Source of the DNA: Escherichia phage vB_EcoM_EP32a
Reading direction: 5' to 3' (one strand)
Length of the DNA: 64,000 nucleotides
Sequence record: OR544954
Positions 3,926 to 62,409 of this stretch are shown here, piece by piece. The notes below the pieces were generated by a model. That model was given only the letters and a program-made list of their open reading frames with translations, ran no database searches and had not been told where the DNA came from. Every line of letters begins with the position of its first letter. Within the stretch, counting starts at the first letter, position 1. Both the position numbers and the translations under genes were made by a program.

Positions 3926-4170
3926 GAAATTGGGTCAGCCATTTGAACGGCCTTTTTACCGGTGACGTATACTTTAGATGTACGAGGTTCAGTAACACCT
4001 CCATGAGTCTCGTATGGTTTTTTAATTTCTGTATGAGGTGTTATTTGGTCTCCTGCCACAAGAACAGGAATACCGCCGGTGAACACTTTAGATTGGGAAG
4101 CATTTATTACAGTAGGAGGCCATGCTTCATGACCTGTTGTAACGCACTTGTCGTAACTTAAGCCAGACAT
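3877..4170 (-). CDS. 5.4: gp5.4 PAAR-type baseplate spike tip protein
   Basis: Start placed at internal ATG giving [19 protein letters not shown]..., 97 aa, matching T4 gp5.4. Confidence 0.8.
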
Positions 4171-4172
4171 TT

Positions 4173-4688
4173 TCACGGCCTCACATAAACGTAGTTTCGT
4201 AATTGATGAGCCCATTTGCTCCAATTTCCTACTATAGTTTTTGTATAAACCTTAGTAAGAGTTTTTTGTACTGGAGCCGGTGGAGGTTCTGTACCAGAGT
4301 CACTTCTAGAACCGCCTGATGAACTTTCTTCTTGGTAGTTATAAATCATTTCAACCGTATAACTAAACACTTTACGAAGATTCTGAGGAGCTCTCCACAA
4401 ATATAACTGGGTTGATTCATCTTTTGGTAAATCATCCCATGAAGATGCGGTTTCAAAATTATCATTTAATCGGTATTTCAATGCGTCTGAAGAAAAGCTA
4501 AACACACTTTCATATGTTCCATATAAACGATTACCATCTACCGTAATGCCTTGTGTCGGTTCATAATCTGTTATATTTATTGACACTAAAGTTTCGGTTG
4601 TTTCTAACTGTGGAGTAAAAAGGACGTCAATAGACGCCCCTTCCATGTCTTCTCCTAAGTCGGTATTTAAAGGAAGTATTTGTGCCAT
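4173..4688 (-). CDS. 5.1: gp5.1 protein
   Basis: 171-aa ORF between gene 5 and 5.4 in T4 order. Confidence 0.7.
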
Positions 4689-4691
4689 ATA

Positions 4692-6425
4692 TTACCCAAT
4701 ATCAATACGAGATCCGTCAACAGTGTATTGTCCTGAAGCTACTGAGCTCATTGTAGACATTGTTTCTGCCCAATCCCCTGCAACAGTCATATCAACATTA
4801 CCGTTAACAGTCCATTTAACGTTTCCGTTGACGGTGTAATCATGATTCCCTTCGACCTGAGTTTTAGCATCACCTTTAACAAGAATATCTGCATTTCCGT
4901 CAACAACTATTTTGATATTCCCCTTAACGTAAAGAGTTCCATCACCTTCAACAGTTTTAGTTTGATTACCACGAATAAAGATTGTGTCATTGCCGTCTAT
5001 TTGATGGAGGCGGTCTGCCATGTTATAATATATTTCATTAGCGCCAACGTTAACAAGCTTATCGCCAGAAATCAAGAAGTTCCCATCACCATTAGTGATG
5101 TCATAAAGGTCTTCTACAGTTTTACGAGTACGACGCCCGGACGGAGAAACTTCCTCATATGACCCTGTTGGATGAACTAAGCGATAACGTTCATTACCTG
5201 GAGTATCGTCAAATTCTTGGATATGACCACTTTCTGTTTCCATAGCATGAACGTATGGATACTCACCACGATAACTTGATTCTGGTTCTTTAAAAAGGAT
5301 GCGTGAATCTAATGGAACAGGAGGACCAGCCGGGTCTTCTGAATCGGTATTTCTAGTAACTAAATCGGCACCAACTCCTGGTGAAGGAGGTGTTTTAACA
5401 GGAACACCGTATGATTCCATATTACCTGTTAAAATAATTGTTGTTACACGTGAAGCGCGTCCTTTAGTCTGTTGGAACCATAATGAATCGCGCCCAGATT
5501 TGTATGCAGTTTTCCAATCACCTTCGGCCATTGCTTTAAGCATAGTATTGAATTTTGCTACACCACCAACGCCCATTTGGAAGCACATGTTTTCTAATGC
5601 CATTTGGCGAGATCTGTTCATTTTAGCATAAACAGGACCCACTTTAGAATTAGAACGAATGTCTTTCTGCATCTTAGCAAGGTCTTTCTCAAATAACGCT
5701 GTTGCTTCTTCTAATGTAATAGTCCCGGGATTTCCTGTTACTTCACGCCCTACTTGATCAGATAACAATTTATTAATTCGAGACATATCTCGGGTCTTTT
5801 CCATTACGATAAGGTGTCCAATACCTACTGTAGGATACCCGAGATGGTCCCAATACACTTTATCACGAAGACCTTCGTCACGACGTAACATTTCTGTTAT
5901 TGTAAAATTAGGGTCATCATCTTCTGGAATATTTGCTAAATCTGTATCATCTGGGTTTATACCATAATCCAAGTTGTTATCTTGAATTACGTTAGAGTTC
6001 GAATAATAACCAGCTTCACCACCTTGGTTTAATACGTTCGTATCATTACCTAAACGTCGTGGATATTGACCTGTAGGGTCGGAAAAACCTTCGAGTCTAT
6101 TAGGCTTTTCGCGTACAATTCCACCGTATGTACCGAGTACAATACCGTTTGTTTTCCATTTGTCTAAGAAATGACCATATACTCTAGTTCCTTCAACAGG
6201 ACCTGTAACAGAACCACCAATACCTGACATTGACGCAGACGTAATAGGTTGAATAACAGTCATCCACGGAAGTTTTTCTGTAGGAATACCTTGTACGTCA
6301 CCTTGTGCTCTCTGTGCCGGATGAAGACCAACGACTCGAACTCGAACTCGCCCTTGTTTTAATGGGTCCATTCTGTCCTCGACAACACCAACGAACCAAT
6401 TAAGGCTACTGCTAATCATTTCCAT
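4692..6425 (-). CDS. 5: baseplate hub / tail lysozyme gp5
   Basis: 577 aa; internal lysozyme-like segment (GYPTVGIGHL); C-terminal beta-helix repeats (VxGNxxxTVxGN). Confidence 0.92.
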   Translation of the reverse strand: MEMISSSLNWFVGVVEDRMDPLKQGRVRVRVVGLHPAQRAQGDVQGIPTEKLPWMTVIQPITSASMSGIGGSVTGPVEGTRVYGHFLDKWKTNGIVLGTYGGIVREKPNRLEGFSDPTGQYPRRLGNDTNVLNQGGEAGYYSNSNVIQDNNLDYGINPDDTDLANIPEDDDPNFTITEMLRRDEGLRDKVYWDHLGYPTVGIGHLIVMEKTRDMSRINKLLSDQVGREVTGNPGTITLEEATALFEKDLAKMQKDIRSNSKVGPVYAKMNRSRQMALENMCFQMGVGGVAKFNTMLKAMAEGDWKTAYKSGRDSLWFQQTKGRASRVTTIILTGNMESYGVPVKTPPSPGVGADLVTRNTDSEDPAGPPVPLDSRILFKEPESSYRGEYPYVHAMETESGHIQEFDDTPGNERYRLVHPTGSYEEVSPSGRRTRKTVEDLYDITNGDGNFLISGDKLVNVGANEIYYNMADRLHQIDGNDTIFIRGNQTKTVEGDGTLYVKGNIKIVVDGNADILVKGDAKTQVEGNHDYTVNGNVKWTVNGNVDMTVAGDWAETMSTMSSVASGQYTVDGSRIDIG

Positions 6426-7000
6426 TATGCAATCTCCATCTCACGAATCAAATCTGTGATAAACGAGTTTATATCTTCTTTTGCAACAATTTTTATTTTA
6501 CGAAGTTTTTCATTATCTAATACTGCCGCTTCATAAGTATCTACTGCAGCTAAAGGTCCTTTATATTGCGGATACTTACGAGCTTCATCACCTTTATCGT
6601 ACCACACTAAAGGCTCGTCCGGATATGAAACCAAATTGTAAAATTTCTCACGGTTCTCGTTAATATGATAAAGAATTTGGTCTCCGCCGGCATTTGCATA
6701 TTTCTGAATAGAAGCTTGATACGCTGCTTCCTGAGATGTAATCCAACCATAATACGGGTCGTAGTTATCGTTGCACATCAAAAGAACCCAGTATAATTGT
6801 GGGTTTCCATAAATTATGTTTGCTAGTTCTTCAGGACGTGGAGAGCCTTTAATGTAATAAGAACGTAATCTATAATTGGCCGCCACACGCTTAAAGTACT
6901 CTTTATAGTTACGAAATATGTCTGTCATAGGAATAGTAGGTGCATTCTTATTAACTGTTTTAGCACTATATCCTATTGGGTCGAAGAATGTAAATAACAA
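6425..7000 (-). CDS. 53: baseplate wedge protein gp53
   Basis: 191 aa, MLFTFFDPIGYSAKTVNKNAPTIPMTDIFRNY matches recalled T4 gp53; apparent TTG start with AAGGAG SD. Confidence 0.85.
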   Translation of the reverse strand: MLFTFFDPIGYSAKTVNKNAPTIPMTDIFRNYKEYFKRVAANYRLRSYYIKGSPRPEELANIIYGNPQLYWVLLMCNDNYDPYYGWITSQEAAYQASIQKYANAGGDQILYHINENREKFYNLVSYPDEPLVWYDKGDEARKYPQYKGPLAAVDTYEAAVLDNEKLRKIKIVAKEDINSFITDLIREMEIA

Positions 7001-7027
7001 GATAGTCTCCTTCCAATATGAAATTGG

Positions 7028-7035
7028 TATAAATA
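7028..7035 (+). promoter_or_regulatory. T4 late promoter motif TATAAATA upstream of gene 4
   Basis: Exact TATAAATA about 27 nt upstream of gene 4 ATG. Confidence 0.6.
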
Positions 7036-7042
7036 ATAATAC

Positions 7043-7050
7043 TATTTATA
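7043..7050 (-). promoter_or_regulatory. T4 late promoter motif TATAAATA (minus strand) upstream of gene 53
   Basis: Reverse complement of tatttata, oriented toward the gene 53 start. Confidence 0.55.
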
Positions 7051-7061
7051 AGGAGGACAAC

Positions 7062-7511
7062 ATGGCCTACTCTGGTAAATGGGTCCCAAAAAATTTAAAA
7101 AAATACCGTGGAGACCATACCAAAATAACGTATCGTTCAAACTGGGAAAAATTCTTTTTCGAATGGTTGGATAAAAATCCAGAAATTATTGCATGGGGTA
7201 GTGAAACAGCAGTAATTCCATATTTTTGTAATGCTGAAGGTAAGAAACGTCGATACTATATGGACATATGGATGAAAGATGCATCAGGCCAAGAGTTTTT
7301 TGTAGAAATAAAACCAAAGAAAGAAACTCAACCACCTATTAAGCCCGTAAATCTTACGACCGCAGCAAAGAAACGTTATATGAATGAAATCTACACGTGG
7401 TCTGTGAACTGTGACAAATGGAAAGCTGCTTCAGCTGTTGCTGAAAAGAGAAATATAAAATTTCGAGTTCTAACCGAAGATGGACTTAGGAAACTCGGAT
7501 ACAAGGGGTAA
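7062..7511 (+). CDS. 4: head completion protein gp4
   Basis: [24 protein letters not shown]..., 149 aa, AGGAGG SD; start moved from ORF-track 6918 to ATG 7062. Confidence 0.88.
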
Positions 7512-37758: not shown

Positions 37759-38232
37759 ATGTTATTATCTGGCAAATTATACAAAGAAGAAAAACAAAAA
37801 TTTTATGATGCACAGAATGGTAAGTGTCCTATTTGCCACCGTGAATTAGACCCTGATGTTCAAGGTAACCATCTTGACCACGACCACGAATTAAACGGGC
37901 CAAAAGCAGGTAGAGTTCGTGGGTTACTCTGTAATCTGTGCAACGCAGCAGAAGGCCAAATGAAGCATAAGTTCAACCGTTCCGGTCTTAAAGGACGTGA
38001 TGTCGACTACCTCGAATGGCTTGAAGCTCTTCTTGCTTATTTGAAACAAGATTATTCTGATAATAATATCCATCCTAATTTTGTTCCAGACAAAACTAAA
38101 GAGTTCTCAAGACTAGGTAAAGAGGAAATGATGACTGAGATGCTTCAAAGAGGATTTGAATATAATGAATCTGATACCAAAACACAATTAATAGCTTCAT
38201 TCAAAAAGCAGCTTAGAAAGAGTTTAAAATGA
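37759..38232 (+). CDS. 49: endonuclease VII (Holliday junction resolvase) gp49
   Basis: MLLSGKLYKEEKQKFYDAQNGKCPICHREL..., near-identical to recalled T4 gp49. Confidence 0.93.
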   Translation: MLLSGKLYKEEKQKFYDAQNGKCPICHRELDPDVQGNHLDHDHELNGPKAGRVRGLLCNLCNAAEGQMKHKFNRSGLKGRDVDYLEWLEALLAYLKQDYSDNNIHPNFVPDKTKEFSRLGKEEMMTEMLQRGFEYNESDTKTQLIASFKKQLRKSLK

Positions 38233-40046
38233 AAATTGAAAAAGAAATTGAAGGATTAATTCATAAAACTAATAAAGATCTTTTGAACGAGAATGCTAAT
38301 AAAGATTCTCGTGTTTTTCCAACTCAACGGGACCTTATGGCTGGTATTGTGTCTAAGCACATTGCCAAAAATATGGTCCCGTCTTTTATTATGAAAGCAC
38401 ATGAAAGCGGAATTATCCATTTCCATGATATTGATTATTCCCCTGCTCTTCCATTTACTAATTGCTGTTTAGTAGATTTAAAAGGAATGCTTGAAAACGG
38501 GTTTAAGCTAGGTAATGCTCAAATTGAAACGCCTAAATCGATTGGTGTTGCTACTGCAATTATGGCACAAATTACCGCACAGGTTGCTTCACATCAGTAC
38601 GGCGGAACGACTTTTGCTAATGTAGATAAAGTACTTTCTCCTTATGTTAAACGCACCTATGCAAAACATATTGAGGATGCAGAAAAATGGCAAATTGCTG
38701 ATGCGTTGAATTATGCCCAATCTAAAACAGAAAAAGACGTATACGATGCATTTCAAGCTTATGAGTATGAAGTAAATACTCTTTTTAGCTCAAACGGTCA
38801 AACGCCTTTTGTAACAATTACATTTGGTACTGGAACTGACTGGACTGAACGAATTATTCAGAAAGCAATTCTGAAAAATCGTATTAAAGGTCTTGGTCGT
38901 GATGGAATAACTCCTATTTTCCCTAAACTTGTTATGTTCGTTGAAGAAGGTGTTAATCTTTATAAAGACGATCCGAACTATGATATTAAGCAGCTTGCGT
39001 TAGAATGTGCAAGCAAAAGAATGTATCCTGATATTATTTCGGTTAAGAACAATAAAGCTATCACTGGTTCATCTATTCCTGTTTCTCCAATGGGTTGTCG
39101 TAGTTTCTTGAGTGTATGGAAAGATTCGACTGGAAATGAAATTCTTGATGGACGTAATAATCTTGGTGTTGTAACACTGAATCTTCCTCGTATTGCGTTA
39201 GATTCTTATATTGGAACACAATTCAATGAACAGAAATTTGTTGAGCTATTTAATGAACGAATGGATCTGTGTTTTGAAGCCTTGATGTGTAGAATTAGTT
39301 CTTTAAAGGGTGTTAAAGCAACTGTTGCTCCTATTCTTTACCAAGAAGGTGCATTCGGGGTTCGTCTTAAACCTGATGACGATATAATTGAGTTATTTAA
39401 AACCGGTAGAAGTTCAGTGTCCTTAGGATACATTGGTATTCACGAATTGAATATTCTTGTCGGTCGTGATATTGGACAAGAAATTTTAACTAAAATGAAT
39501 GCTCATCTTAAGCAGTGGACTGAAAGAACCGGTTTTGCTTTTAGCTTGTATTCTACTCCTGCTGAAAACCTGTGCTATCGCTTCTGTAAACTTGATACCG
39601 AGAAATATGGAAGTGTAAAAGATGTTACTGATAAAGGCTGGTACACTAATAGTTTCCATGTTTCAGTAGAAGAAAATATCACTCCGTTTGAAAAGATTTC
39701 TCGCGAAGCCCCATATCATTTCATTGCGACTGGCGGACATATTTCTTATGTTGAACTTCCAGATATGAAAAACAATTTAAAGGGTCTTGAGGCTGTATGG
39801 GATTATGCTGCACAACATTTAGATTATTTTGGTGTTAATATGCCAGTAGATAAATGTTTTACATGTGGAAGTACTCATGAAATGACTCCTACTGAAACCG
39901 GATTTGTTTGTTCTATTTGTGGAGAAACTGACCCTAAAAAGATGAACACCATAAGAAGAACATGCGGTTATCTTGGAAATCCTAACGAACGCGGATTTAA
40001 TCTCGGCAAAAATAAAGAAATCATGCATAGGGTTAAACACCAATGA
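38229..40046 (+). CDS. nrdD: anaerobic ribonucleotide reductase NrdD (uninterrupted)
   Basis: 605 aa; C-terminal zinc ribbon and glycyl-radical motif RRTCGYLG. Confidence 0.92.
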   Translation: MKIEKEIEGLIHKTNKDLLNENANKDSRVFPTQRDLMAGIVSKHIAKNMVPSFIMKAHESGIIHFHDIDYSPALPFTNCCLVDLKGMLENGFKLGNAQIETPKSIGVATAIMAQITAQVASHQYGGTTFANVDKVLSPYVKRTYAKHIEDAEKWQIADALNYAQSKTEKDVYDAFQAYEYEVNTLFSSNGQTPFVTITFGTGTDWTERIIQKAILKNRIKGLGRDGITPIFPKLVMFVEEGVNLYKDDPNYDIKQLALECASKRMYPDIISVKNNKAITGSSIPVSPMGCRSFLSVWKDSTGNEILDGRNNLGVVTLNLPRIALDSYIGTQFNEQKFVELFNERMDLCFEALMCRISSLKGVKATVAPILYQEGAFGVRLKPDDDIIELFKTGRSSVSLGYIGIHELNILVGRDIGQEILTKMNAHLKQWTERTGFAFSLYSTPAENLCYRFCKLDTEKYGSVKDVTDKGWYTNSFHVSVEENITPFEKISREAPYHFIATGGHISYVELPDMKNNLKGLEAVWDYAAQHLDYFGVNMPVDKCFTCGSTHEMTPTETGFVCSICGETDPKKMNTIRRTCGYLGNPNERGFNLGKNKEIMHRVKHQ

Positions 40047-40513
40047 ATTATGATAGATTTTATCCTTGCGATTTTGTGAATGGCCCTGGTTGCAGGGTCG
40101 TTCTTTTCGTTACAGGTTGTTTGCATAAATGCGAAGGGTGTTATAATAAATCAACATGGAACGCTAGAAATGGTATTCCATTCACGGGTGAAACACTAGA
40201 GCAATTAATTGAATGTTTGAATAATGATTATATAGAAGGATTAACTATAACTGGAGGAGACCCTCTCTATCCCGATAACAGAGATGTTGTTCATTGCATT
40301 GCTCAAACAGTAAAAAATCTTTATCCCAATAAAAGCATTTGGTTGTGGACAGGATATAAGTTTGAAGATATTAAACAACTAGAAATGCTTAAATATGTTG
40401 ATGTTATTATTGATGGGAAGTATGAGAAAAATCTTCCGACCAAAAAACTGTGGCGAGGATCAGATAATCAGCGACTTTGGTCAAATACCGATGGGGTGTG
40501 GAAACATGATTAA
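40043..40513 (+). CDS. nrdG: anaerobic RNR activating enzyme NrdG (radical SAM)
   Basis: CLHKCEGCYN radical-SAM cysteine motif; 156 aa. Confidence 0.9.
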   Translation: MNYDRFYPCDFVNGPGCRVVLFVTGCLHKCEGCYNKSTWNARNGIPFTGETLEQLIECLNNDYIEGLTITGGDPLYPDNRDVVHCIAQTVKNLYPNKSIWLWTGYKFEDIKQLEMLKYVDVIIDGKYEKNLPTKKLWRGSDNQRLWSNTDGVWKHD

Positions 40514-51833: not shown

Positions 51834-54545
51834 ATGAAAGAATTTTACTTAACGGTTGAACAGATTGGTGATTCAATTTTTGAACGTTACATCGATTCTA
51901 ATGGCCGTGAACGTACTCGTGAAGTAGAATATAAACCATCGCTGTTTGCTCATTGTCCAGAAAGTCAGGCTACGAAATATTTCGATATCTACGGTAAGCC
52001 GTGTACTCGTAAGTTGTTCGCTAATATGCGTGATGCCTCCCAATGGATTAAACGCATGGAAGATATCGGACTTGAAGCACTTGGCATGGACGATTTCAAA
52101 TTGGCGTATTTGTCTGACACTTATAACTATGAAATCAAATACGACCATACAAAAATTCGTGTGGCTAACTTCGACATCGAAGTAACATCTCCGGACGGGT
52201 TCCCTGAGCCGTCACAAGCAAAACATCCTATTGATGCTATCACCCATTATGACTCAATTGACGACAGGTTCTACGTATTTGATCTATTGAATTCTCCATA
52301 TGGTAATGTGGAAGAATGGTCTATCGAAATTGCAGCTAAGCTTCAAGAACAAGGTGGTGATGAAGTTCCATCCGAAATTATCGACAAAATCGTTTATATG
52401 CCGTTTGATAATGAAAAAGAATTATTGATGGAATATCTCAACTTCTGGCAACAGAAAACTCCTGTCATTTTGACTGGATGGAACGTTGAGTCATTTGATA
52501 TTCCATATGTGTATAACCGAATCAAGAATATTTTTGGCGAATCTACTGCGAAACGTTTATCACCACATCGTAAAACTCGCGTTAAAGTTATCGAAAACAT
52601 GTATGGTTCTCGTGAAATCATTACATTGTTCGGTATCTCTGTTCTTGATTACATTGACCTTTACAAAAAATTCTCTTTTACTAATCAACCGTCGTATTCT
52701 CTGGATTACATTTCAGAATTTGAATTGAACGTTGGTAAACTGAAATATGACGGCCCTATTTCTAAGCTTCGTGAAAGCAATCACCAACGATATATTTCTT
52801 ATAACATTATCGACGTGTATCGTGTATTGCAAATTGATGCTAAGCGTCAGTTCATCAACTTGAGTTTGGACATGGGTTATTATGCTAAGATACAGATTCA
52901 ATCTGTGTTTAGCCCAATTAAAACATGGGATGCTATTATTTTTAATAGCCTTAAAGAGCAGAACAAGGTGATTCCACAAGGTCGTTCTCACCCGGTTCAA
53001 CCTTATCCTGGCGCTTTTGTTAAGGAACCTATTCCAAATCGATACAAATATGTAATGAGTTTCGACCTTACATCTCTGTATCCAAGTATTATTCGCCAAG
53101 TGAATATTAGCCCAGAAACAATAGCAGGAACGTTTAAAGTAGCTCCATTGCATGATTATATTAACGCTGTTGCTGAACGTCCTTCTGATGTGTACAGTTG
53201 CTCTCCTAACGGCATGATGTATTATAAAGACCGTGATGGTGTAGTTCCAACTGAAATCACTAAAGTCTTTAATCAACGTAAAGAACATAAAGGTTATATG
53301 CTTGCGGCTCAACGTAATGGTGAAATAATTAAAGAGGCGTTGCATAATCCTAATCTTTCTGTTGACGAACCATTAGATGTTGATTATCGTTTCGACTTTA
53401 GCGATGAGATTAAAGAAAAGATTAAAAAGTTGTCTGCTAAATCTCTTAATGAAATGTTGTTTAGAGCTCAACGTACTGAAGTTGCAGGTATGACTGCCCA
53501 AATTAACCGTAAATTGCTTATCAACTCACTTTATGGTGCACTTGGCAACGTTTGGTTCCGTTATTACGATTTGCGTAATGCTACTGCAATCACAACATTT
53601 GGTCAAATGGCTTTACAGTGGATTGAACGTAAAGTTAATGAATATCTGAATGAAGTTTGTGGCACAGAAGGTGAAGCTTTCGTTCTTTATGGTGATACAG
53701 ACTCTATTTACGTATCTGCTGATAAAATTATCGATAAGGTTGGTGAATCTAAATTCCGTGATACCAACCATTGGGTAGACTTCTTAGATAAGTTTGCACG
53801 TGAACGTATGGAACCAGCTATTGATAGAGGTTTCCGTGAAATGTGTGAATACATGAACAATAAACAACACTTAATGTTCATGGACCGAGAAGCTATCGCT
53901 GGTCCTCCGCTTGGTTCTAAAGGTATTGGTGGATTCTGGACTGGCAAGAAACGTTATGCATTAAACGTGTGGGATATGGAAGGCACTCGTTACGCTGAGC
54001 CTAAACTCAAAATCATGGGTCTCGAGACTCAGAAATCTTCGACTCCTAAAGCAGTACAGAAAGCTCTTAAAGAATGTATTCGTCGTATGCTTCAAGAAGG
54101 TGAAGAATCATTACAAGAATATTTTAAAGAGTTTGAAAAAGAATTCCGTCAATTGAATTATATTAGCATCGCGTCGGTATCTTCTGCGAATAACATTGCT
54201 AAATATGACGTAGGTGGATTCCCTGGTCCCAAATGCCCGTTCCATATTCGTGGAATTCTGACGTATAACCGGGCTATCAAAGGTAATATTGATGCTCCAC
54301 AAGTTGTAGAAGGTGAAAAAGTATATGTTCTGCCTTTACGTGATGGAAACCCATTCGGTGATAAATGTATCGCATGGCCTTCTGGTACTGAAATCACAGA
54401 TTTAATTAAAGACGACGTACTTCATTGGATGGACTACACTGTTCTCCTTGAGAAGACATTTATTAAACCACTTGAAGGATTCACATCAGCAGCGAAACTC
54501 GATTACGAGAAGAAAGCATCTCTGTTCGATATGTTCGATTTTTGA
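51834..54545 (+). CDS. 43: DNA polymerase gp43 (family B)
   Basis: 903 aa; exo motifs FDIEV and YNIIDV, pol motifs DLTSLYPS and YGDTDS; matches recalled RB69 gp43 sequence. Confidence 0.97.
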   Translation: MKEFYLTVEQIGDSIFERYIDSNGRERTREVEYKPSLFAHCPESQATKYFDIYGKPCTRKLFANMRDASQWIKRMEDIGLEALGMDDFKLAYLSDTYNYEIKYDHTKIRVANFDIEVTSPDGFPEPSQAKHPIDAITHYDSIDDRFYVFDLLNSPYGNVEEWSIEIAAKLQEQGGDEVPSEIIDKIVYMPFDNEKELLMEYLNFWQQKTPVILTGWNVESFDIPYVYNRIKNIFGESTAKRLSPHRKTRVKVIENMYGSREIITLFGISVLDYIDLYKKFSFTNQPSYSLDYISEFELNVGKLKYDGPISKLRESNHQRYISYNIIDVYRVLQIDAKRQFINLSLDMGYYAKIQIQSVFSPIKTWDAIIFNSLKEQNKVIPQGRSHPVQPYPGAFVKEPIPNRYKYVMSFDLTSLYPSIIRQVNISPETIAGTFKVAPLHDYINAVAERPSDVYSCSPNGMMYYKDRDGVVPTEITKVFNQRKEHKGYMLAAQRNGEIIKEALHNPNLSVDEPLDVDYRFDFSDEIKEKIKKLSAKSLNEMLFRAQRTEVAGMTAQINRKLLINSLYGALGNVWFRYYDLRNATAITTFGQMALQWIERKVNEYLNEVCGTEGEAFVLYGDTDSIYVSADKIIDKVGESKFRDTNHWVDFLDKFARERMEPAIDRGFREMCEYMNNKQHLMFMDREAIAGPPLGSKGIGGFWTGKKRYALNVWDMEGTRYAEPKLKIMGLETQKSSTPKAVQKALKECIRRMLQEGEESLQEYFKEFEKEFRQLNYISIASVSSANNIAKYDVGGFPGPKCPFHIRGILTYNRAIKGNIDAPQVVEGEKVYVLPLRDGNPFGDKCIAWPSGTEITDLIKDDVLHWMDYTVLLEKTFIKPLEGFTSAAKLDYEKKASLFDMFDF

Positions 54546-54585: not shown

Positions 54586-55221
54586 ATGAAAACTACTCCT
54601 ATTACTATCGCTATTGACGCAATCATAAAACAAGCTTCTTCTTTGGCCGCTATGGCCAAAGTAATTAGTCAAAACCCTGCTCGTTATAATGCTATTCTAG
54701 AAACTCTTCGACGCCCTGGACTTAGTAATTATGAAAGCCGGGTAATTATTACAGGTGTTGGTAAGAATGCTAATATCGCAACTAAAGCTTCCGAGACTTT
54801 TGCTTCACTAGGTATTCCTAGCATGTATTTGAACACCGGGCATTATTCTCATGGTGATGCAGGATTTATTGCGCCTAATGATGTGTTGATTCATATTAGT
54901 CGTTCTGGTAAAACTGAAGAAATGATAGGTGTTGCTAAACATCTTCGTATGATTCGTCCTCAGGTTAAACAGATTCTGTTACATTGTAACCCAGACATTC
55001 CACAAGAATACGAAGCTCTTTTTGATTATACGTTCTGTACCGGTATCGCGGTAGAAGTTGACGAGAACTCTTTGGCTCCGACTATGTCCACTACATTGTT
55101 GTTAGCGCTTATCGATACGTTTGCTATCAACCTTTCGTCTGAACGCGGATTTACCTCTAATGACTTCCTTAAGTTCCACCCTGGTGGTGCACTAGGTGCC
55201 ATGTTACGAGGCGAACAATGA
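54586..55221 (+). CDS. SIS-domain sugar-phosphate isomerase (KdsD/GmhA-like)
   Basis: ITGVGKNANIA ... HGDAGF ... SRSGKTEE motifs. Confidence 0.75.
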   Translation: MKTTPITIAIDAIIKQASSLAAMAKVISQNPARYNAILETLRRPGLSNYESRVIITGVGKNANIATKASETFASLGIPSMYLNTGHYSHGDAGFIAPNDVLIHISRSGKTEEMIGVAKHLRMIRPQVKQILLHCNPDIPQEYEALFDYTFCTGIAVEVDENSLAPTMSTTLLLALIDTFAINLSSERGFTSNDFLKFHPGGALGAMLRGEQ

Positions 55222-55402: not shown

Positions 55403-57088
55403 ATGAAAAAAGCTGTTATTCTTGGTGCTGGACTGGCAACTCGTTTGTATCCAATAACGCATCATATTCCTAAGGTGCTTGTTAACTATAAACAAGACAC
55501 TATTCTGAGCAATTTGTATACAATTTATTCTGACCTTGGCGCAGATGAAATTATTGTAGTAGTTCATTCAAAATTTGCTGAAACCGTTCGAGCTTATTGT
55601 GAGCAAGAAGGGTTCAATGTGACTATTCGTACAGTTGATGAAGCGTATGGTTCTGCTTATGCTCTTGCTAAATTATACAAAGATTTAGATGGCCATAACG
55701 TAATTGTTAACTGGTGTGATATTATTCCTGATTTTGGTTCATGGTCTTGGAATGTTAACGCAATCTATGTTAAGGGTGATGAATGTCGATATAATTTCGA
55801 CGGTGAAAATATCACTAACGTAGGTTCAACGGGTGGTAATGTTGTAGGAATTTACCAGTTCAAAGACTGGGAATTCTATATGGGTTCTACTGATGAGGAA
55901 ATTCATGAATACTGCAAAGGACGTGATTTCGTAGAATTCCTTTACGGGAGTGCATTCAATAAATCAGAGCTTATGAATCTAATTGATTTAGGTGATATGC
56001 CTAAACTTGAAAAAGCTCATGAAGTTCGTGAACTTAATCGTAGTTTTAATGCAGTTGAAATTGGTGAAGAAACTGTAACTAAATTCGCATTAACCGAACA
56101 GGGTCGAGCTCTTCAGAAAGATGAGATTTCATGGTATCTTAAAGTGAAATCAGATTCAGTTCCTCAGTTAGTTTCTGTTAATGAAAATAACTTTGAAATG
56201 GAACGCATTAAAGGTAAGCCGGCATTTGAATATATTAAATCCAAATCAAGTCTTGCTCGTCCACAAATTGTTGATGCAATTTTAGATGCACTGAAATTCA
56301 GCACAGACACTTATTTTGTAAGTCCTGAAACTGTTCGTCGTGATTTCACTAAAGAATTCTATACGAAAGTTATTGATCGTTGTGAAAGCATTCAGCCATT
56401 GATTGATTCATTTGGTAAAATCACACATGTGAACTACACTAAGATTGGACGTCTGAAGCCAATGCTGAAACAAGCTTTAGAACACCTTATTCGTTATCAT
56501 AACCGTTCTCAGGGACAGTACTCTGTTATTCACGGTGACCCGAACTTCAGTAATACTATGATTACTGATAATGGCGAAGTCAAGTTTATCGACCCTCGTG
56601 GATATTTTGGTGAAACCAAGATTTACGGGCCAAAATTGTATGACGAAGCTAAAGTGCTTTATGCTGTTTCAGGTTATGATGAATTCAATGCTAATCCAAC
56701 CTGGGGACAGTTTACTATTGATGAAACAACTTGTAATGTGACTATTAACATCAATCCATTAGTTTACAAATATGGAAAGATGAGTTCGTTTAACGAGTAT
56801 CATCATTTGGCAGTGGCAATTATCTGGATTGCATTAGGTGGTTATTTCAAGAATAATCCACTTAAAGCGGTAGCCGCATATTATAAAGGTATGGAACTTC
56901 TGACTAAGCAATTACGTAACATGGGCCGTGTACTTCAGGACGGCTCTATTAGTTATGACGTAGCAGAACCTGTAACGGCTACTCTGATTACAAAAAATCC
57001 TGGTAAATGGGTACTAACTGATAAAGAAACTGGTGTTTCCTATCGTCCAATCGGTGGCGATATCACTCATCAATGGGAACGAATCTAA
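55403..57088 (+). CDS. bifunctional sugar-1-phosphate nucleotidyltransferase / kinase
   Basis: N-terminal ILGAGLATRLYPIT (RmlA-like); C-terminal VIHGDPNFSN...FIDPRG (APH/choline-kinase-like). Confidence 0.75.
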   Translation: MKKAVILGAGLATRLYPITHHIPKVLVNYKQDTILSNLYTIYSDLGADEIIVVVHSKFAETVRAYCEQEGFNVTIRTVDEAYGSAYALAKLYKDLDGHNVIVNWCDIIPDFGSWSWNVNAIYVKGDECRYNFDGENITNVGSTGGNVVGIYQFKDWEFYMGSTDEEIHEYCKGRDFVEFLYGSAFNKSELMNLIDLGDMPKLEKAHEVRELNRSFNAVEIGEETVTKFALTEQGRALQKDEISWYLKVKSDSVPQLVSVNENNFEMERIKGKPAFEYIKSKSSLARPQIVDAILDALKFSTDTYFVSPETVRRDFTKEFYTKVIDRCESIQPLIDSFGKITHVNYTKIGRLKPMLKQALEHLIRYHNRSQGQYSVIHGDPNFSNTMITDNGEVKFIDPRGYFGETKIYGPKLYDEAKVLYAVSGYDEFNANPTWGQFTIDETTCNVTININPLVYKYGKMSSFNEYHHLAVAIIWIALGGYFKNNPLKAVAAYYKGMELLTKQLRNMGRVLQDGSISYDVAEPVTATLITKNPGKWVLTDKETGVSYRPIGGDITHQWERI

Positions 57089-57474
57089 TGCACCGTGTAG
57101 AAAACATGCTTAATCTTTGTTTTGATGTCGACGATTGTATAACAGAGTGGAATAACAATCGTGATTACGTGAACTTCAAGCCAGACGTCGAAATGGTGAC
57201 TGCCATTAATGCCCTGTATGATGCAGGGCATACCATAACGCTTTACACTGCTCGTGGTATGAAGTCAGTAGGTCCTGGACGTATAGCAATTGATATTCTC
57301 CCAAGTCTGATTCAGAACTTGGCAAACATTGGCTTGAAGTACCATAATTTGCTAACACATAAACCAGTATATGATTGGATTATCGACGACAAAGCTATGC
57401 GTCCTGACGAATTCAAAGCTCTTATGAATAAAGGCGAATTCGAAACATTTAAATCGTATAAACCGAATCTATAA
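57088..57474 (+). CDS. HAD-superfamily phosphatase
   Basis: DxDxT motif FDVDDCIT; start 57088 (TAATG overlap) or 57073. Confidence 0.6.
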   Translation: MHRVENMLNLCFDVDDCITEWNNNRDYVNFKPDVEMVTAINALYDAGHTITLYTARGMKSVGPGRIAIDILPSLIQNLANIGLKYHNLLTHKPVYDWIIDDKAMRPDEFKALMNKGEFETFKSYKPNL

Positions 57475-57519
57475 TAATTTAAGTAAGACCTGCAAAAAAA
57501 AACCATCGCGTCAATTAAC

Positions 57520-58695
57520 GTGAGATGCAAAAAAATGAATACTTTTAAAATCGGAACGAATTTTGATTTAGCTCTTCTTGATAAAATCGTAGAGCTCAAT
57601 AAAACTTATCCTAATAGCTTGATAAACGAAGTATACGGCTCTACAAGAGAAATGGCTTTTGTAGCAGCCAGACCTGATTTTAGGCTTCCTGACGTTGACA
57701 AAAAGATGTTAGAAGATTACGTTAAACGTTGTAACGAATTAGGTATTTGCTTTAACTATACACTCAACACGATAAATCCTGGTTCAAAAAGAGAACTAGT
57801 TGAGTGGAAGAAGAAAGCTATTCAGGATTATGTTCAGTATCTTTGGTCAATAGGCGTATGGCGTATTACTATCGCTAACCCTGTTGTTATGGAAATTGTT
57901 CGTGAAGTCAATAAAGACATTGAGATTGAAGTTTCAACAATTCTACATGTCGATGCTGTAACTCAAATAAAATACTTACATGACCAATACAATATCAAAA
58001 AGGTCTGCTGTGGAATTCATAAGAACCGTTCAGTTTCTTTCCTGAAGCGTGCAGCAGAGTTTTGCAATAAGAACAATATAATATTTGAAGTTCTTGTAAA
58101 TGAGTTCTGTTCTAATGCTGGTAAAGGGTATACAACACATTGTAGCTATCGTGACTCTTGCTATATTTTCCATAGTACTGATGTTACAGCTGATGATGCT
58201 AAATCCTTAAACGGGTATCCTATGCAGCACTGTATTAAAGCTCGTGATACAGACCCATTTAACTGGTTGAGAACTCGTTTTGTTCGTCCTCAAGATTTGA
58301 AACTTTATAATGATATTGGTATCACTCAATTCAAAGTTTCAGGACGTACAGGTAGCACAGACTACATTTTGAAAGTTCTTGAAGCATACGCTTCTGAAAA
58401 GTTTGAAGGTAATTTGTTAGAACTGTGGAAGCCTTTAGAGACTATTTTCACTCTTGAAAACGAAACTGAGTTTTCACATACAGTAAATATTGAAACCTCT
58501 TTGTTAGATGGCTTTTTAGAAAAAAGGTGGTTCAGACATCCAGATTTCGATTGTGCTAATGAAATCTGCGGGACGACGTGTACATATTGTGAAAGATATT
58601 ATAAACGTCAATTATCTAAAAACGGGTTAGCAGAAAACTCTATATCTATTATTGATATAACTAACTCTGATGACGCTTTGAGGTACCCGGAATGA
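57520..58695 (+). CDS. Cys-rich 391-aa protein, candidate modification or transferase enzyme
   Basis: Cys clusters EFCSNAGKGYTTHCSY and DCANEICGTTCTYCERYY; family not assigned. Confidence 0.6.
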   Translation: MRCKKMNTFKIGTNFDLALLDKIVELNKTYPNSLINEVYGSTREMAFVAARPDFRLPDVDKKMLEDYVKRCNELGICFNYTLNTINPGSKRELVEWKKKAIQDYVQYLWSIGVWRITIANPVVMEIVREVNKDIEIEVSTILHVDAVTQIKYLHDQYNIKKVCCGIHKNRSVSFLKRAAEFCNKNNIIFEVLVNEFCSNAGKGYTTHCSYRDSCYIFHSTDVTADDAKSLNGYPMQHCIKARDTDPFNWLRTRFVRPQDLKLYNDIGITQFKVSGRTGSTDYILKVLEAYASEKFEGNLLELWKPLETIFTLENETEFSHTVNIETSLLDGFLEKRWFRHPDFDCANEICGTTCTYCERYYKRQLSKNGLAENSISIIDITNSDDALRYPE

Positions 58696-58931
58696 TTTCT
58701 AGAAAAACTTTTAATCACCGACTTAATGAAGAGATTTTGACTACGAAACTGAACACTAACGAACAAATTCTTAAAAAGGCCCTGATGGGCCTGTTTGAAA
58801 TTAAAGCGGCTAAAGTGATTAAAGAACCTGTTCAATTGGAATACTACGCTGATGCATTTCTTCATAGTGTTCTTGGAAGTATCGATGCTGAAGCTTTACG
58901 TTATATCAACATTGTCAAGAAATTCAAATAA
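58692..58931 (+). CDS. hypothetical protein
   Basis: 79 aa. Confidence 0.5.
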   Translation: MISRKTFNHRLNEEILTTKLNTNEQILKKALMGLFEIKAAKVIKEPVQLEYYADAFLHSVLGSIDAEALRYINIVKKFK

Positions 58932-58972: not shown

Positions 58973-59689
58973 ATGGGAAAACATAACACAATGAAATATA
59001 TCAAAGCCGCAGATTTTCAAACCGCATTTAAAGCAGTCAATCGTGAAATTTTAGAAAACCCGGAATTCGTAACTGATTCTCGTATTGGACGTTGTAATGA
59101 AATTGGGTCTATGACAGTAGTTGTTGACACTCCATCATCATTCAAAATGACAGACCCACGTATTAACCGCATCTCTTATGAATATGCCGAAGACTTCTGG
59201 AAGTTTATGATTTCTGGTGGTACCAACGCAGAAGAAGCGTTTAAGGCATATCCTAATGTCGCTAAATTTATTTCTAAACCAAAATCAGATGTTTTGCCGG
59301 CGAACTTCAACACTTTCTATGGTCCTCGCATTGCGGCCCAGCTACCGGCTCTTCTAAAAGAACTTAAAGAGAAGCCTAACTCTCGAAGAGTTGTGTTCCA
59401 AATTCTAGAAAGTTCTGATCAGGCTTTGCTTGATTCGGACGAAACGCTTGAATATCCATGTACTGACTCAGTGACTTATTATATTCGTGATGGTAAGCTT
59501 TATACCCACTGTCATATGCGTTCCCAGAACTGTGCTGTTGTTATGCAGTTGGATTTTTATCTCCAAGGAAAATTACTTCATTATATCGCTAACGAATGTG
59601 GTGTAGAAGTTGGTGATTATACTCATACCATGGTAAGTGCCCATGTGTTTGAACGTGATTTTGATTATGTTAAAGGATTCCTTGACTAA
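58973..59689 (+). CDS. 42: thymidylate-synthase-fold pyrimidine hydroxymethylase (gp42-like, divergent)
   Basis: EYPCTDSVTYYIRD...HMRSQN resembles the T4 gp42 active-site region FMCTNTVQYLIRD...NMRSND. Confidence 0.6.
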   Translation: MGKHNTMKYIKAADFQTAFKAVNREILENPEFVTDSRIGRCNEIGSMTVVVDTPSSFKMTDPRINRISYEYAEDFWKFMISGGTNAEEAFKAYPNVAKFISKPKSDVLPANFNTFYGPRIAAQLPALLKELKEKPNSRRVVFQILESSDQALLDSDETLEYPCTDSVTYYIRDGKLYTHCHMRSQNCAVVMQLDFYLQGKLLHYIANECGVEVGDYTHTMVSAHVFERDFDYVKGFLD

Positions 59690-60588
59690 TGGCTATTTTC
59701 CGCGTACCTATCTTGAGTATGCGGTCTTATGAAACTGGACAGTATGCTATCCTTAAGGATGGCAACTTCCAACTTCATTTGCACCGTGCTAATCCAGGTG
59801 ATGTGATTACATATCCACGTAATGCATCTGATATTAAAGAATGCGAACGTCTTTTTCCGGAATTTAAGTTTGTTCCATTATGGTATAAAGATAACGCGTA
59901 TAACACTCGTAAATATTTCTGGTCTGAAAATGAATTTGTGGTTGATTCATTAATTGCTTATTATGATTGTGATTTTCTAATCACAGATATCACCGGATAT
60001 GATGGCGCTTTTGACGTAGAATTCAATTTCAATATCACTGCAGACCCTAATAAACCACGTTTTTATATTGATGAATTCTTAAAAACCGACATGTTGTCTG
60101 TTAATCGTTCACTTCAAACTACTGTGTTGAATGAACGTCAAAAAGAAGTGCTGGTTAACGCAGGTGCAGATGGTAATAAGATTATCGTAACACAGAAAGT
60201 TATACGTCCTTCCGTCATGCAGCGTCTTGTAGGTGATTTGGCTCCTATTCATCTAGATGGTATTTTTCATCCATTTCGAATTAGTGACCCATGCTATCGT
60301 TTTGAACAAGTGGTTGAATGCGCAATTCAATTAGGTCAACCGCTTTATATAACTGATCCAAATAATAGTTTCGACAGAAATAAGTATCCTGAAGAAGCGC
60401 TGATTCGAATTTTTAATCCAACTAAAACTGAGTACTATCAAATTCTTAAAGGACGTCCGAAGATTCAATATTTCGAAAATCCTGAAGAAGTATTCCATCC
60501 AGGTCTTGGTGAGTTCATCTACTTTAATGCTTTAATTTCTTCACCGTATAATATACCTAAATACGAAGATGTCGTAATCGAGGAATAA
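59689..60588 (+). CDS. hypothetical 299-aa protein (at the T4 beta-gt position)
   Basis: No family recognised by eye. Confidence 0.55.
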   Translation: MAIFRVPILSMRSYETGQYAILKDGNFQLHLHRANPGDVITYPRNASDIKECERLFPEFKFVPLWYKDNAYNTRKYFWSENEFVVDSLIAYYDCDFLITDITGYDGAFDVEFNFNITADPNKPRFYIDEFLKTDMLSVNRSLQTTVLNERQKEVLVNAGADGNKIIVTQKVIRPSVMQRLVGDLAPIHLDGIFHPFRISDPCYRFEQVVECAIQLGQPLYITDPNNSFDRNKYPEEALIRIFNPTKTEYYQILKGRPKIQYFENPEEVFHPGLGEFIYFNALISSPYNIPKYEDVVIEE

Positions 60589-60589
60589 A

Positions 60590-61138
60590 ATGGCTAAAAT
60601 TATTTTAGTAGACGGGCCTGATAATGCTGGTAAAACAACTTTCATTAATGACATAATGGAAATTAGTGAAAGATATGTAAAGATTGATTTCCCTAAACGA
60701 ACAGTTGATGGGCGTTTCGATGTTAAGTCTCGAAATGAAGTTGGCTGTTTCGAAACGATGTTGAATTATTTAGACCCTACTAAGATTTATCTATTAGACC
60801 GTGGATATATTAGTAACTGGGTTTATGGACGTATTCGACAAGATGCGGACTCGGTTCTTGACGTTTATGAACAGGATTATGTTCGTCTTTGCCAAAACCA
60901 TGATGTGTTCACAATTATTTTAACCCGTAACGAAATGACTGAAAGTTTTGAAGACGACCTTATTACTTTGTCTTCATTCGGTTTTAATACAGTCATTTCA
61001 CATTTTGAAGAGTTTGCAATTCATAACAAAATCCAAACGTATCAATTACTTAATCATGATGGTTCTAACAAAGTTATAGGATTTAATGCAAGTGAACGTA
61101 ATAATTTGATTACAGAAATCATTAAATGGGCTCGTTAA
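60590..61138 (+). CDS. P-loop nucleoside/nucleotide kinase-like protein
   Basis: Walker A VDGPDNAGKTT; 182 aa. Confidence 0.6.
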   Translation: MAKIILVDGPDNAGKTTFINDIMEISERYVKIDFPKRTVDGRFDVKSRNEVGCFETMLNYLDPTKIYLLDRGYISNWVYGRIRQDADSVLDVYEQDYVRLCQNHDVFTIILTRNEMTESFEDDLITLSSFGFNTVISHFEEFAIHNKIQTYQLLNHDGSNKVIGFNASERNNLITEIIKWAR

Positions 61139-61236: not shown

Positions 61237-62409
61237 ATGTCTGATTTAAAATCTCGTCTGATTAAAGCTTCTACTTCTAAAATGACTGCAGACTTGACTA
61301 AGTCTAAGCTGTTTAATAATCGTGATGAAGTCCCTACTCGTATTCCGATGTTGAATATTGCATTAGGTGGTGCTCTGAATGCAGGATTGCAATCAGGCTT
61401 GACTATTTTTGCTGCTCCTTCTAAACACTTTAAAACGTTGTTTGGACTAACTATGGTTGCAGCATATATGAAGAAATATAAAGATGCAATTTGTTTGTTC
61501 TATGATTCAGAATTTGGTGCTTCAGAATCTTATTTTCGTTCAATGGGTGTTGATTTAGACCGTGTAGTTCATACACCAATTCAGTCAGTAGAACAACTTA
61601 AAGTTGATATGACTAATCAGCTTGACGCGATTGAACGCGGTGATAAAGTTATTATCTTTATCGATTCAATCGGTAATACTGCATCTAAGAAAGAAACTGA
61701 AGATGCATTGAACGAGAAAGTTGTAGGTGATATGTCTCGTGCTAAGGCACTTAAATCTCTTTTCCGTATTGTGACCCCGTATCTGACTATTAAAGATATT
61801 CCGTGTGTTGCAATTAACCATACCGCAATGGAAATTGGCGGATTGTATCCTAAAGAGATTATGGGCGGTGGTACAGGTATTCTTTATTCTGCTAACACTG
61901 TATTCTTTATCTCTAAACGTCAGGTTAAAGAAGGTACAGAATTGACCGGTTATGACTTCACGTTGAAAGCAGAAAAATCTCGTACAGTTAAAGAGAAATC
62001 TACTTTCCCGATCACGGTTAATTTCGATGGTGGTATCGACCCATTCAGTGGCTTGCTAGAAATGGCAACTGAAATCGGTTTTGTGGTTAAGCCTAAAGCC
62101 GGGTGGTATGCTCGTGAATTCCTTGACGAAGAAACAGGTGAAATGATTCGTGAAGAGAAATCGTGGCGTGCTAAAGCTACTGATTGTGTAGAATTCTGGG
62201 GACCGTTGTTTAAACACAAGCCTTTCCGTGACGCAATTGAAACTAAATATAAACTAGGTGCTATCTCTTCTATTAAAGAAGTTGATGACGCTGTTAACGA
62301 CCTTATTAATTGCAAAGCAACAACTAAAGTTCCGGTTAAAACTTCTGATGCTCCGTCTGCAGCAGATATAGAAAACGACCTTGACGAAATGGAAGATTTC
62401 GATGAATAA
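61237..62409 (+). CDS. uvsX: recombinase UvsX (RecA-like)
   Basis: 390 aa; P-loop-containing, T4 order before 40 and 41. Confidence 0.9.
   Translation: MSDLKSRLIKASTSKMTADLTKSKLFNNRDEVPTRIPMLNIALGGALNAGLQSGLTIFAAPSKHFKTLFGLTMVAAYMKKYKDAICLFYDSEFGASESYFRSMGVDLDRVVHTPIQSVEQLKVDMTNQLDAIERGDKVIIFIDSIGNTASKKETEDALNEKVVGDMSRAKALKSLFRIVTPYLTIKDIPCVAINHTAMEIGGLYPKEIMGGGTGILYSANTVFFISKRQVKEGTELTGYDFTLKAEKSRTVKEKSTFPITVNFDGGIDPFSGLLEMATEIGFVVKPKAGWYAREFLDEETGEMIREEKSWRAKATDCVEFWGPLFKHKPFRDAIETKYKLGAISSIKEVDDAVNDLINCKATTKVPVKTSDAPSAADIENDLDEMEDFDE

Follow-up and report, generated by a model that had tools for sequence, protein, structure and literature searches.

Several prephenate-dependent hydroxylations in Escherichia coli involve proteins of the U32 family. 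RlhA is needed for 5-hydroxycytidine 2501 of 23S rRNA, and requires prephenate synthesis and iron-sulfur (Fe-S) biogenesis (PMC5727448), TrhP provides a prephenate-dependent route to 5-hydroxyuridine in tRNA (ho5U34) beside the O2-dependent TrhO (PMC6599085), and UbiU and UbiV, in which four conserved cysteines bind a [4Fe-4S] cluster (PMC6747719), carry out the O2-independent hydroxylation of ubiquinone precursors with prephenate as the oxygen donor (PMC10990095). Prephenate is the product of chorismate mutase, and a pheA tyrA mutant is rescued by the chorismate mutase domain of PheA (PMC10990095). Here we describe a U32 gene in a stretch of 64,000 nucleotides of Escherichia phage vB_EcoM_EP32a (record OR544954; the whole stretch is termed the window), which is the homolog of gp50 of phage RB69, and propose with moderate confidence that it encodes a prephenate-dependent, O2-independent Fe-S enzyme that hydroxylates C5 of a pyrimidine and so supplies 5-hydroxycytosine (5hoC) under anaerobic conditions.

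An O2-dependent route to this base is known from RB69, whose DNA contains arabinosyl-5-hydroxycytosine and not arabinosyl-hydroxymethylcytosine, and whose gp48 was shown experimentally to be a flavin-binding 5-hydroxy-dCMP synthase that takes its oxygen from O2, as established by 18O2 labeling (PMC13326640). In the window, the gene encoded 280 bp 3′ of U32 had been taken in a preliminary description for a hydroxymethylase making hydroxymethylcytosine, an assignment that does not hold since 236 of its 238 residues are identical to those of gp48; the DNA modification here is therefore arabinosyl-5-hydroxycytosine rather than arabinosyl-hydroxymethylcytosine. The ThyA-type enzymes (RB69 gp48, DLP3 gp80 and the HY126 homolog) would share product and pathway with the U32 protein and differ from it in their unrelated fold, their flavin cofactor and the origin of the oxygen atom from O2 (PMC13326640). 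On the reading proposed here, the ThyA-type synthase would be the aerobic counterpart of the U32 enzyme, and gp48/gp50 would form a pair like TrhO and TrhP (YegQ), an O2-dependent and a prephenate-dependent enzyme for one 5-hydroxypyrimidine.

From family membership, fold, invariant cysteines, and the patterns of gene neighborhood and distribution we infer that the protein binds Fe-S and uses prephenate, what its substrate is, and that its role is anaerobic. A wider proposal, for which the chances seem about even, is that the whole clade consists of phage-borne, single-chain, prephenate-dependent (deoxy)pyrimidine C5 hydroxylases, which in many uncultivated, probably anaerobe-infecting phages would alone provide the hydroxyl group for DNA glycosylation, and in enteric T4-like phages would be the anaerobic twin of the 5-hydroxy-dCMP synthase. 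Lee et al. cite RNA hydroxylation (Kimura et al., Lauhon) in their discussion with no tie to gp50 (PMC13326640), and a full-text literature search of limited coverage found no paper tying U32 or prephenate to phage 5hoC, so that priority elsewhere is possible.

Family, fold and cysteines of the U32 protein

The open reading frame (ORF) at 57520 to 58695 on the plus strand, with 391 amino acids (aa) from a GTG codon, is present as first described, as are its two cysteine-containing strings, EFCSNAGKGYTTHCSY and DCANEICGTTCTYCERYY, and a regular-expression search of the protein likewise found neither a P-loop nor a Rossmann motif. The in-frame ATG at 57535, giving 386 aa, is the more likely start than the GTG at 57520, because homologs start with MNTFK or MNxFKxG and the PHROG profile covers residues 1–386 end to end; residues are counted from this ATG unless the 391-aa form is stated. 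The protein had been placed in no known family, with a loose impression of resemblance to U32 enzymes. It is the impression that is borne out, by the fold described below and by Pfam Peptidase_U32 (PF01136), which matches residues 99–291 of the 391-aa form with 42.2 bits against a gathering cut-off of 22.4 (E 7.5e-11). A U32 match of RB69 ORF050c was already listed in 2006 (PMC1524935).

Queried with the protein sequence alone, the PDB chains gave no match. An AlphaFold2 model built with 109 homologs (pLDDT 94, pTM 0.92) has the U32-type TIM-barrel fold, and its top fold match is the U32 protein Mk0906 of Methanopyrus kandleri (PDB 5D88), a 247-aa core barrel that is 11–14% identical and covers the phage protein in part. 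The preliminary description had considered either a metal or Fe-S enzyme or an unusual glycosyltransferase; the former agrees with a U32 protein predicted to bind Fe-S, while the latter is contradicted by the TIM barrel and by zero glycosyltransferase families in Pfam, NCBIfam or the listed fold matches, among which the carbohydrate-active proteins are glycoside hydrolases. The protein has no similarity to the ThyA-type synthase.

When cysteine invariance was scored over the 109 homologs, with identity down to 47%, C158, C192, C203, C209, C233, C340, C345, C349 and C352 were found in 109/109. Two groups of four among them (Table 1) are a candidate [4Fe-4S] site and a candidate second Fe-S or Zn site. 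The phage protein thus has two Cys4 clusters in one chain where the UbiU-UbiV heterodimer has two [4Fe-4S] clusters; UbiU-UbiV differ in their lipid quinone substrate, in being a heterodimer and in needing UbiT, and the similarity is low (NCBIfam UbiU E 9e-4, hhalign 6%). Cluster 1 lies in the same region as the canonical U32 motif with a different spacing, C203 and C209 pairing with the CX6C of RlhA by hhalign, and C192 and C209 pairing with C169 and C176 of UbiU in a MAFFT alignment. Cluster 2 is specific to the clade and is missing from UbiU, UbiV and TrhP in the MAFFT alignment, which was the only comparison made with UbiV.

Of the three E. coli paralogs compared by hhalign, RlhA (YdcP) aligns best with the phage clade (probability 85.8% over 207 columns, compared with 20% for TrhP and 6% for UbiU), a ranking that carries little weight, since the clade was aligned to one sequence per target. 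Like the phage protein, RlhA has a U32 domain, and it makes a 5-hydroxycytosine in a manner that needs prephenate and Fe-S biogenesis. It differs in its 653 aa with extra C-terminal domains and in acting on one rRNA residue, and the phage protein is not its ortholog: it has 386 aa, is ~21% identical, aligns to RlhA residues 45–258 only and has no RlhA-level match in NCBIfam. The third and fourth canonical cysteines of RlhA are unaligned and the C-terminal Cys4 cluster is peculiar to the phage protein. TrhP (453 aa) differs in its tRNA uridine substrate, and its weak hhalign similarity is confined to the N-terminal half. Searched with a profile, a set of 1.84 billion representative proteins yielded 495 clusters at E ≤ 1e-30, a number that rises to 1717 at E ≤ 1e-3. 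The clade is thus a fairly large and divergent subfamily within U32, with members of ~350–390 aa.

The gene is also well conserved. At least 80% aa identity to the U32 protein is reached in 221 phage records and at least 99% in 152; RB69 gp50 is 99.5% identical, with 9 synonymous and 2 non-synonymous codon differences, which points to purifying selection acting on a gene that is real and constrained.

RefSeq and PHROG 5757 name the protein a peptidase, and the known substrates of U32 enzymes are RNA and quinones. It could on these grounds be a true (collagenase-like) peptidase, or a hydroxylase of host rRNA, tRNA or quinone; indeed, an indirect action of RlhA as a peptidase was not fully ruled out by Kimura et al. 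(PMC5727448). Yet catalytic peptidase residues are undefined for U32, and across T4-like and unrelated uncultivated phages the gene has genes of DNA modification and nucleotide metabolism as its neighbors, so that a role of either kind seems extremely improbable.

Prephenate genes next to U32 genes

Indirect evidence for a link to prephenate is provided by the genes that adjoin U32 in related phages. At the U32 stop codon of Enterobacter phage Entb_45 begins a gene for a type II chorismate mutase of 79 aa, which scores above the threshold of Pfam CM_2 (E 2.4e-10) and is matched by several NCBIfam chorismate mutase models too. By tblastn, mutases of this type are found in 51 phage records, with hosts that include Klebsiella, Serratia, Yersinia, Enterobacter, Edwardsiella, Erwinia, Pectobacterium, Escherichia (EcS1), Shewanella, Providencia, Morganella and Kosakonia, and the Proteus Bragaviruses have a more divergent copy (CM_2 E 3.4e-12). 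The distance between U32 and mutase is at most ~350 nt in 12 of the 12 records with coordinates for both genes, the two are adjacent in four further records that were read directly (TG1, PM2, Thanatos-1 and LC53), and the U32 stop and mutase start often overlap. Residues R8, R25, K36, E49, S71 and Q75, which correspond to active-site residues of the E. coli enzyme, are invariant in six aligned phage mutases, a protein that PHROGs labels as being of 'unknown function'.

Within the genus Kanagawavirus, Entb_45 has both U32 and the mutase and vB_EclM_Q7622 has neither, with the rest of the cluster intact. In Shewanella phage Thanatos-1, where the cluster is rearranged, U32 (TH1_065) and the mutase (TH1_066) still overlap (2850–4240 of locus L015) and are placed after a kinase-like gene, not before a ThyA homolog; judging from this gene order, they appear to have been relocated as a unit. 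The published Thanatos-1 study modeled TH1_057 through TH1_065, and the candidates named there are TH1_060 and TH1_063 only. U32 is found without the mutase in the Mosigviruses and in Klebsiella phage Clarke_MM3, and a mutase without U32 was not seen in any record inspected.

The same association is found far outside the T4-like phages. U32 homologs at 40–58% identity are located on contigs bearing phage replication genes, some 127–466 kb long, and 33 non-T4 loci from IMG/VR (homologs 40–55% identical) were scanned with local hidden Markov models (HMMs). Chorismate mutase is encoded in 11 of these 33 loci and DAHP synthase in six, five of which have it fused to the mutase; one or both are present in 12 loci, in every case no more than 2.3 kb from U32 and on its strand. 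With GT, CM and DAHPS standing for glycosyltransferase, chorismate mutase and DAHP synthase, the gene orders seen are GT-SIS-AfhE-[DAHPS+CM]-U32, U32-CM-GT-AfhE, U32-[CM+DAHPS]-GT and U32-DAHPS. DAHP synthase is also directly 3′ of U32 in locus L004 (NCBIfam E 2.6e-70, compared with 2.9e-17 for KDO8P synthase), a DAHP synthase-chorismate mutase fusion is directly 5′ of U32 in a Gastranaerophilaceae metagenome-assembled genome (MAG; L028), and chorismate mutase is 2.2 kb from U32 in L025. Homologs of the fusion are rare in phages, with matches in 11 of 50,697 phage records. In fecal phage contig MT837090.1 the DAHP synthase-mutase gene is at the very start, where the contig breaks off, and no U32 is found in the remaining 11 kb.

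These distant loci also contain much of the sugar module, with a gp46:47-type glycosyltransferase, often overlapping U32, in 20 of the 33, an AfhE-like gene in 16 and a SIS gene in nine. Within ±10 kb of U32, no ThyA homolog was found in 32 of the 33 loci, and one has a weak match. The simplest reading of glycosyltransferase and sugar genes without a ThyA homolog is that the hydroxyl group decorated by the glycosyltransferase comes from U32, an apparent replacement of the ThyA-type hydroxylase by U32 in uncultivated phages.

The same pattern bears on the possibility that U32 is a helper of the ThyA-type hydroxylase, an Fe-S protein that oxidizes prephenate and passes electrons to the flavin of gp48. 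The two genes are adjacent in the window, gp48 requires reduced flavin, and a chorismate mutase would suit any prephenate-consuming reaction; however, 5-hydroxydeoxycytidine (5hodC) is made in E. coli by gp48 alone or together with the phage dNMP kinase, without gp50 (PMC13326640). The helper role is further weakened because nearly all of the distant loci have U32 and no nearby ThyA homolog, and it is considered very improbable. To our knowledge, there is no precedent for such a role in the U32 family.

The two-step logic of a U32 hydroxylase followed by a glycosyltransferase is the same as that of the phage pairs of TET/JBP enzymes and TET-associated glycosyltransferases (TAGTs), where an oxidase makes the hydroxyl on a DNA pyrimidine and the adjoining glycosyltransferase decorates it. 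TET and JBP differ from U32 in that they are dioxygenases dependent on O2 and 2-oxoglutarate, with 5-methylcytosine in DNA as the substrate. One U32 homolog has a TAGT gene directly 3′. In that locus (L018, 7777–16179) the order is glycosyltransferase, two unassigned genes, U32, TAGT, dUTPase/DCD, two unassigned genes and UDP-galactopyranose mutase, a candidate galactofuranosyl-5-hydroxypyrimidine DNA module around U32.

As TET, the usual partner of TAGT, acts on DNA, this homolog would also be compatible with the same prephenate chemistry on the polymer, in which U32 hydroxylates cytosine already in phage DNA, for example in mending unmodified cytosines. The characterized nucleic-acid U32 enzymes do work on polymers (PMC5727448, PMC6599085), and the best-aligning E. 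coli paralog is RlhA. The phage protein, however, is missing the C-terminal extra domains of RlhA and TrhP (386 aa versus 653 and 453), the genes near it in distant phages encode enzymes that act on mononucleotides (dCMP deaminase, in one case overlapping, thymidylate-kinase-like, dNK and NT5C), and full replacement of cytosine would be easier at the nucleotide level, as with gp48 (PMC13326640). A polymeric substrate is therefore regarded as unlikely, and hydroxylation of a mononucleotide is preferred. In two of the loci, on large contigs of which one is 466 kb, U32 is directly 3′ of dCMP deaminase (L001, 7447–9086, overlapping; L005, 7504–9083), and to judge by this neighbor the substrate in these phages may be dUMP rather than dCMP.

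Two further arrangements were observed in the distant loci. A radical-SAM/SPASM gene is located 5′ of a gp46:47-type glycosyltransferase and U32 pair in L019 (7980–11086) and L020 (7972–11101), contigs that also bear a DNA polymerase III alpha gene. A four-gene cassette is found in MAG contigs of anaerobic lineages (L002, 5135–9098; L026 and L032–L037, ~3100–7100 each), with the order GP88, a 414–453 aa methyltransferase-domain protein, an unassigned protein of 265–282 aa, and U32; the 414–453 aa protein has the methyltransferase domain in eight neighbors and a guanylate-kinase-like N-terminus in six. By analogy with tRNA mo5U, a hydroxylase beside such a kinase-methyltransferase suggests the possible formation of 5-methoxy-pyrimidine nucleotides.

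Proposed reaction and host distribution

With the AfhE-like gene as a marker for the sugar cluster, 373 phage records were identified, 57 of them Acinetobacter phages, and none of these 57 carries U32 (0 of the 221 U32 records at ≥80% aa identity are from Acinetobacter). In Acinetobacter phage Maestro the phosphatase is followed directly by the ThyA homolog. Whereas phages with U32 have facultative anaerobes as hosts, Acinetobacter is strictly aerobic. In one-genome-per-species assemblies, 25 U32 relatives were found, in lineages that include Erysipelotrichales, Oscillospiraceae, Romboutsia, Tannerella, Phocaeicola, Lachnospiraceae, Ruminiclostridium, Cellulosilyticum and Desulfobacteraceae, and all lineages of these 25 are anaerobes. 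The window itself encodes NrdD and NrdG, ~17 kb 5′ of the sugar cluster, and anaerobic DNA synthesis is therefore within the repertoire of this phage.

The Acinetobacter phages are also informative on whether the U32 protein might instead be a redox or isomerizing enzyme of the sugar branch, altering a pentose or nucleoside diphosphate (NDP)-pentose before transfer. The gene is located among sugar-activation genes, its label in Table 1 of Lee et al. is 'sugar or heterocycle reductase' (PMC13326640), the homolog in phage AlbertHofmann is annotated as a 'putative enzyme involved in UDP-arabinose biosynthesis', and some distant homologs are near epimerase, RmlC or GLF genes. Against this role, gp50 is not needed for any step of the published pathway from ribulose-5-P to UDP-arabinofuranose (PMC13326640), and Acinetobacter phages such as Maestro have the cluster without U32, while polyarabinosylated 5hoC is reported by Lee et al. 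for one of the Acinetobacter phages, DLP3 (PMC13326640). It would also leave the recurrent prephenate-pathway neighbors unexplained, and is thought to be distinctly improbable. We know of no U32 member that acts on a sugar.

For the C5 hydroxylase that is preferred here, the following reaction is envisaged. With one or two bound Fe-S clusters, the U32 protein would add a hydroxyl group to C5 of dCMP, the most likely substrate, or alternatively to that of another cytosine nucleotide or of cytosine in DNA. Prephenate would be the oxygen donor, with phenylpyruvate and CO2 released, after the scheme for UbiU/V (PMC10990095). The product would join that of gp48 in the kinase-polymerase-arabinosyltransferase route, and U32 would back up the flavin- and O2-dependent synthase in the way that TrhP does TrhO, and UbiU/V does UbiI/H/F, in E. 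coli.

Several points count against this proposal. It draws on comparative genomics, in vitro reconstitution of any U32 hydroxylase has yet to be achieved (PMC10990095), and gp50 appears in the work of Lee et al. only under the table label given above, undiscussed (PMC13326640). The CX6CX15CX3/4C motif, which is common to most U32 subfamilies (PMC6747719), is not kept in the phage protein, where no more than two cysteines can be aligned with it, the pair depending on whether MAFFT or hhalign is used; UbiU and UbiV themselves depart from the motif (PMC6747719). No chorismate mutase was found in the 64-kb window with an HMM built from the phage mutases (best E 0.2), and prephenate would therefore come from the PheA/TyrA of the host. 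No FNR-type site was found 5′ of the U32 gene, and FNR-box matches were at about the expected number (87 versus 83). The absence of ThyA from the uncultivated phages refers to the ±10 kb around U32 only. The Acinetobacter phages belong to a few related genera and therefore do not represent many independent events, and the sugar cluster is found without U32 in E. coli Dhakaviruses and some Kanagawaviruses, whose hosts are facultative anaerobes, indicating that U32 is accessory and not obligatory.

If the proposal is true, it would bear on several matters. The gut, where RB69-type phages live, is largely anoxic. The sole characterized route to their 5-hydroxycytosine needs O2, and an anaerobic hydroxylase would explain how their DNA is protected in the gut, with an oxygen-dependent weakness predicted for related therapeutic phages that are without U32. 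It would be the first U32 enzyme known to act on DNA precursors and, as a single-subunit enzyme whose substrate is small and soluble, a practical model that would allow prephenate-dependent hydroxylation to be reconstituted in vitro. Phages would be seen to redirect the shikimate pathway to DNA modification, and some of them would supply U32 through a chorismate mutase, or a fusion of DAHP synthase and chorismate mutase, encoded in their own genomes. The combination of U32, chorismate mutase or DAHP synthase, glycosyltransferase and sugar module in large uncultivated phages suggests that anaerobic ecosystems hold glycosylated 5-hydroxypyrimidine DNA that has yet to be explored.

The sugar cassette of the window and neighboring genes

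The U32 gene is part of a T4-like region flanked by the genes of DNA polymerase (51834–54545) and UvsX (61237–62409), and the 1.4 kb around it is 98.5–99.1% identical to many Escherichia and Shigella Mosigvirus genomes; with a U32 protein 99.5% identical to gp50, the phage is RB69-like yet distinct from RB69. The features of the region are collected in Table 1. The gene had been placed between a HAD phosphatase and a hydroxymethylase; the phosphatase is indeed on its 5′ side, while on the 3′ side a 79-aa ORF intervenes before what is a ThyA homolog.

Table 1. Features of the U32 gene and the surrounding cluster in the window (positions in the 64,000-nucleotide stretch).
Feature	Position	Strand	Basis or remark
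NrdD + NrdG, anaerobic ribonucleotide reductase and activase	38229..40513	+	Pfam NRDD E 4e-170; Fer4_12/Radical_SAM
SIS-domain protein, predicted arabinose-5-phosphate isomerase	54586..55221	+	Pfam SIS; RB69 gp55 assignment (PMC13326640)
Bifunctional sugar kinase/nucleotidyltransferase, AfhE-like, 561 aa	55403..57088	+	Pfam NTP_transferase and kinase-like matches; PMC13326640
HAD-type sugar phosphatase (AfhF-like)	57073..57474	+	Position and homology to RB69 gp51
U32-family protein, homolog of RB69 gp50 / ORF050c (NP_861740)	57535..58695	+	Pfam, fold model, RB69 identity
Cys cluster 1, C192/C203/C209/C233 (C-X10-C-X5-C-X23-C)	58108..58233	+	Invariant; candidate [4Fe-4S] site
Cys cluster 2, C340/C345/C349/C352 (C-X4-C-X3-C-X2-C)	58552..58590	+	Invariant; candidate second Fe-S or Zn site
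79-aa ORF (RB69 ORF049c type)	58692..58931	+	Start overlaps U32 stop as ATGA; lies before ThyA homolog
ThyA-superfamily 5-hydroxy-dCMP synthase (flavin-, O2-dependent)	58973..59689	+	236/238 identical to RB69 gp48
DNA arabinosyltransferase 1 (RB69 gp46:47 type), 299 aa, single ORF	59689..60588	+	RB69 synteny; PMC13326640
Thymidylate-kinase-like nucleotide kinase (RB69 gp45 type)	60590..61138	+	Pfam; RB69 synteny

The 79-aa ORF occupies the slot where related phages have the chorismate mutase, instead or in addition; in Yersinia phage TG1 and Pectobacterium phage PM2 an ORF of this type sits between U32 and the mutase. It evolves fast, with 2 synonymous and 7 non-synonymous codon differences from RB69, and relatives carry shortened variants of 47–58 aa. 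That it is a cryptic chorismate mutase was ruled out, as BLASTP, Pfam and NCBIfam gave no match and hhalign gave 0.5%, and no family was detectable for it.

The number of promoter-like and terminator-like sites in the cluster is no higher than expected by chance. A sigma-70-like site (TTTAAA-16-TATAAT, 10/12) is found at 57448–57475, within the end of the phosphatase gene and 60 nt 5′ of the U32 start. The 561-aa kinase/nucleotidyltransferase and the 299-aa glycosyltransferase are both intact in the window, and each is split in two in the RB69 reference record, splits that Lee et al. put down to sequencing errors (PMC13326640).

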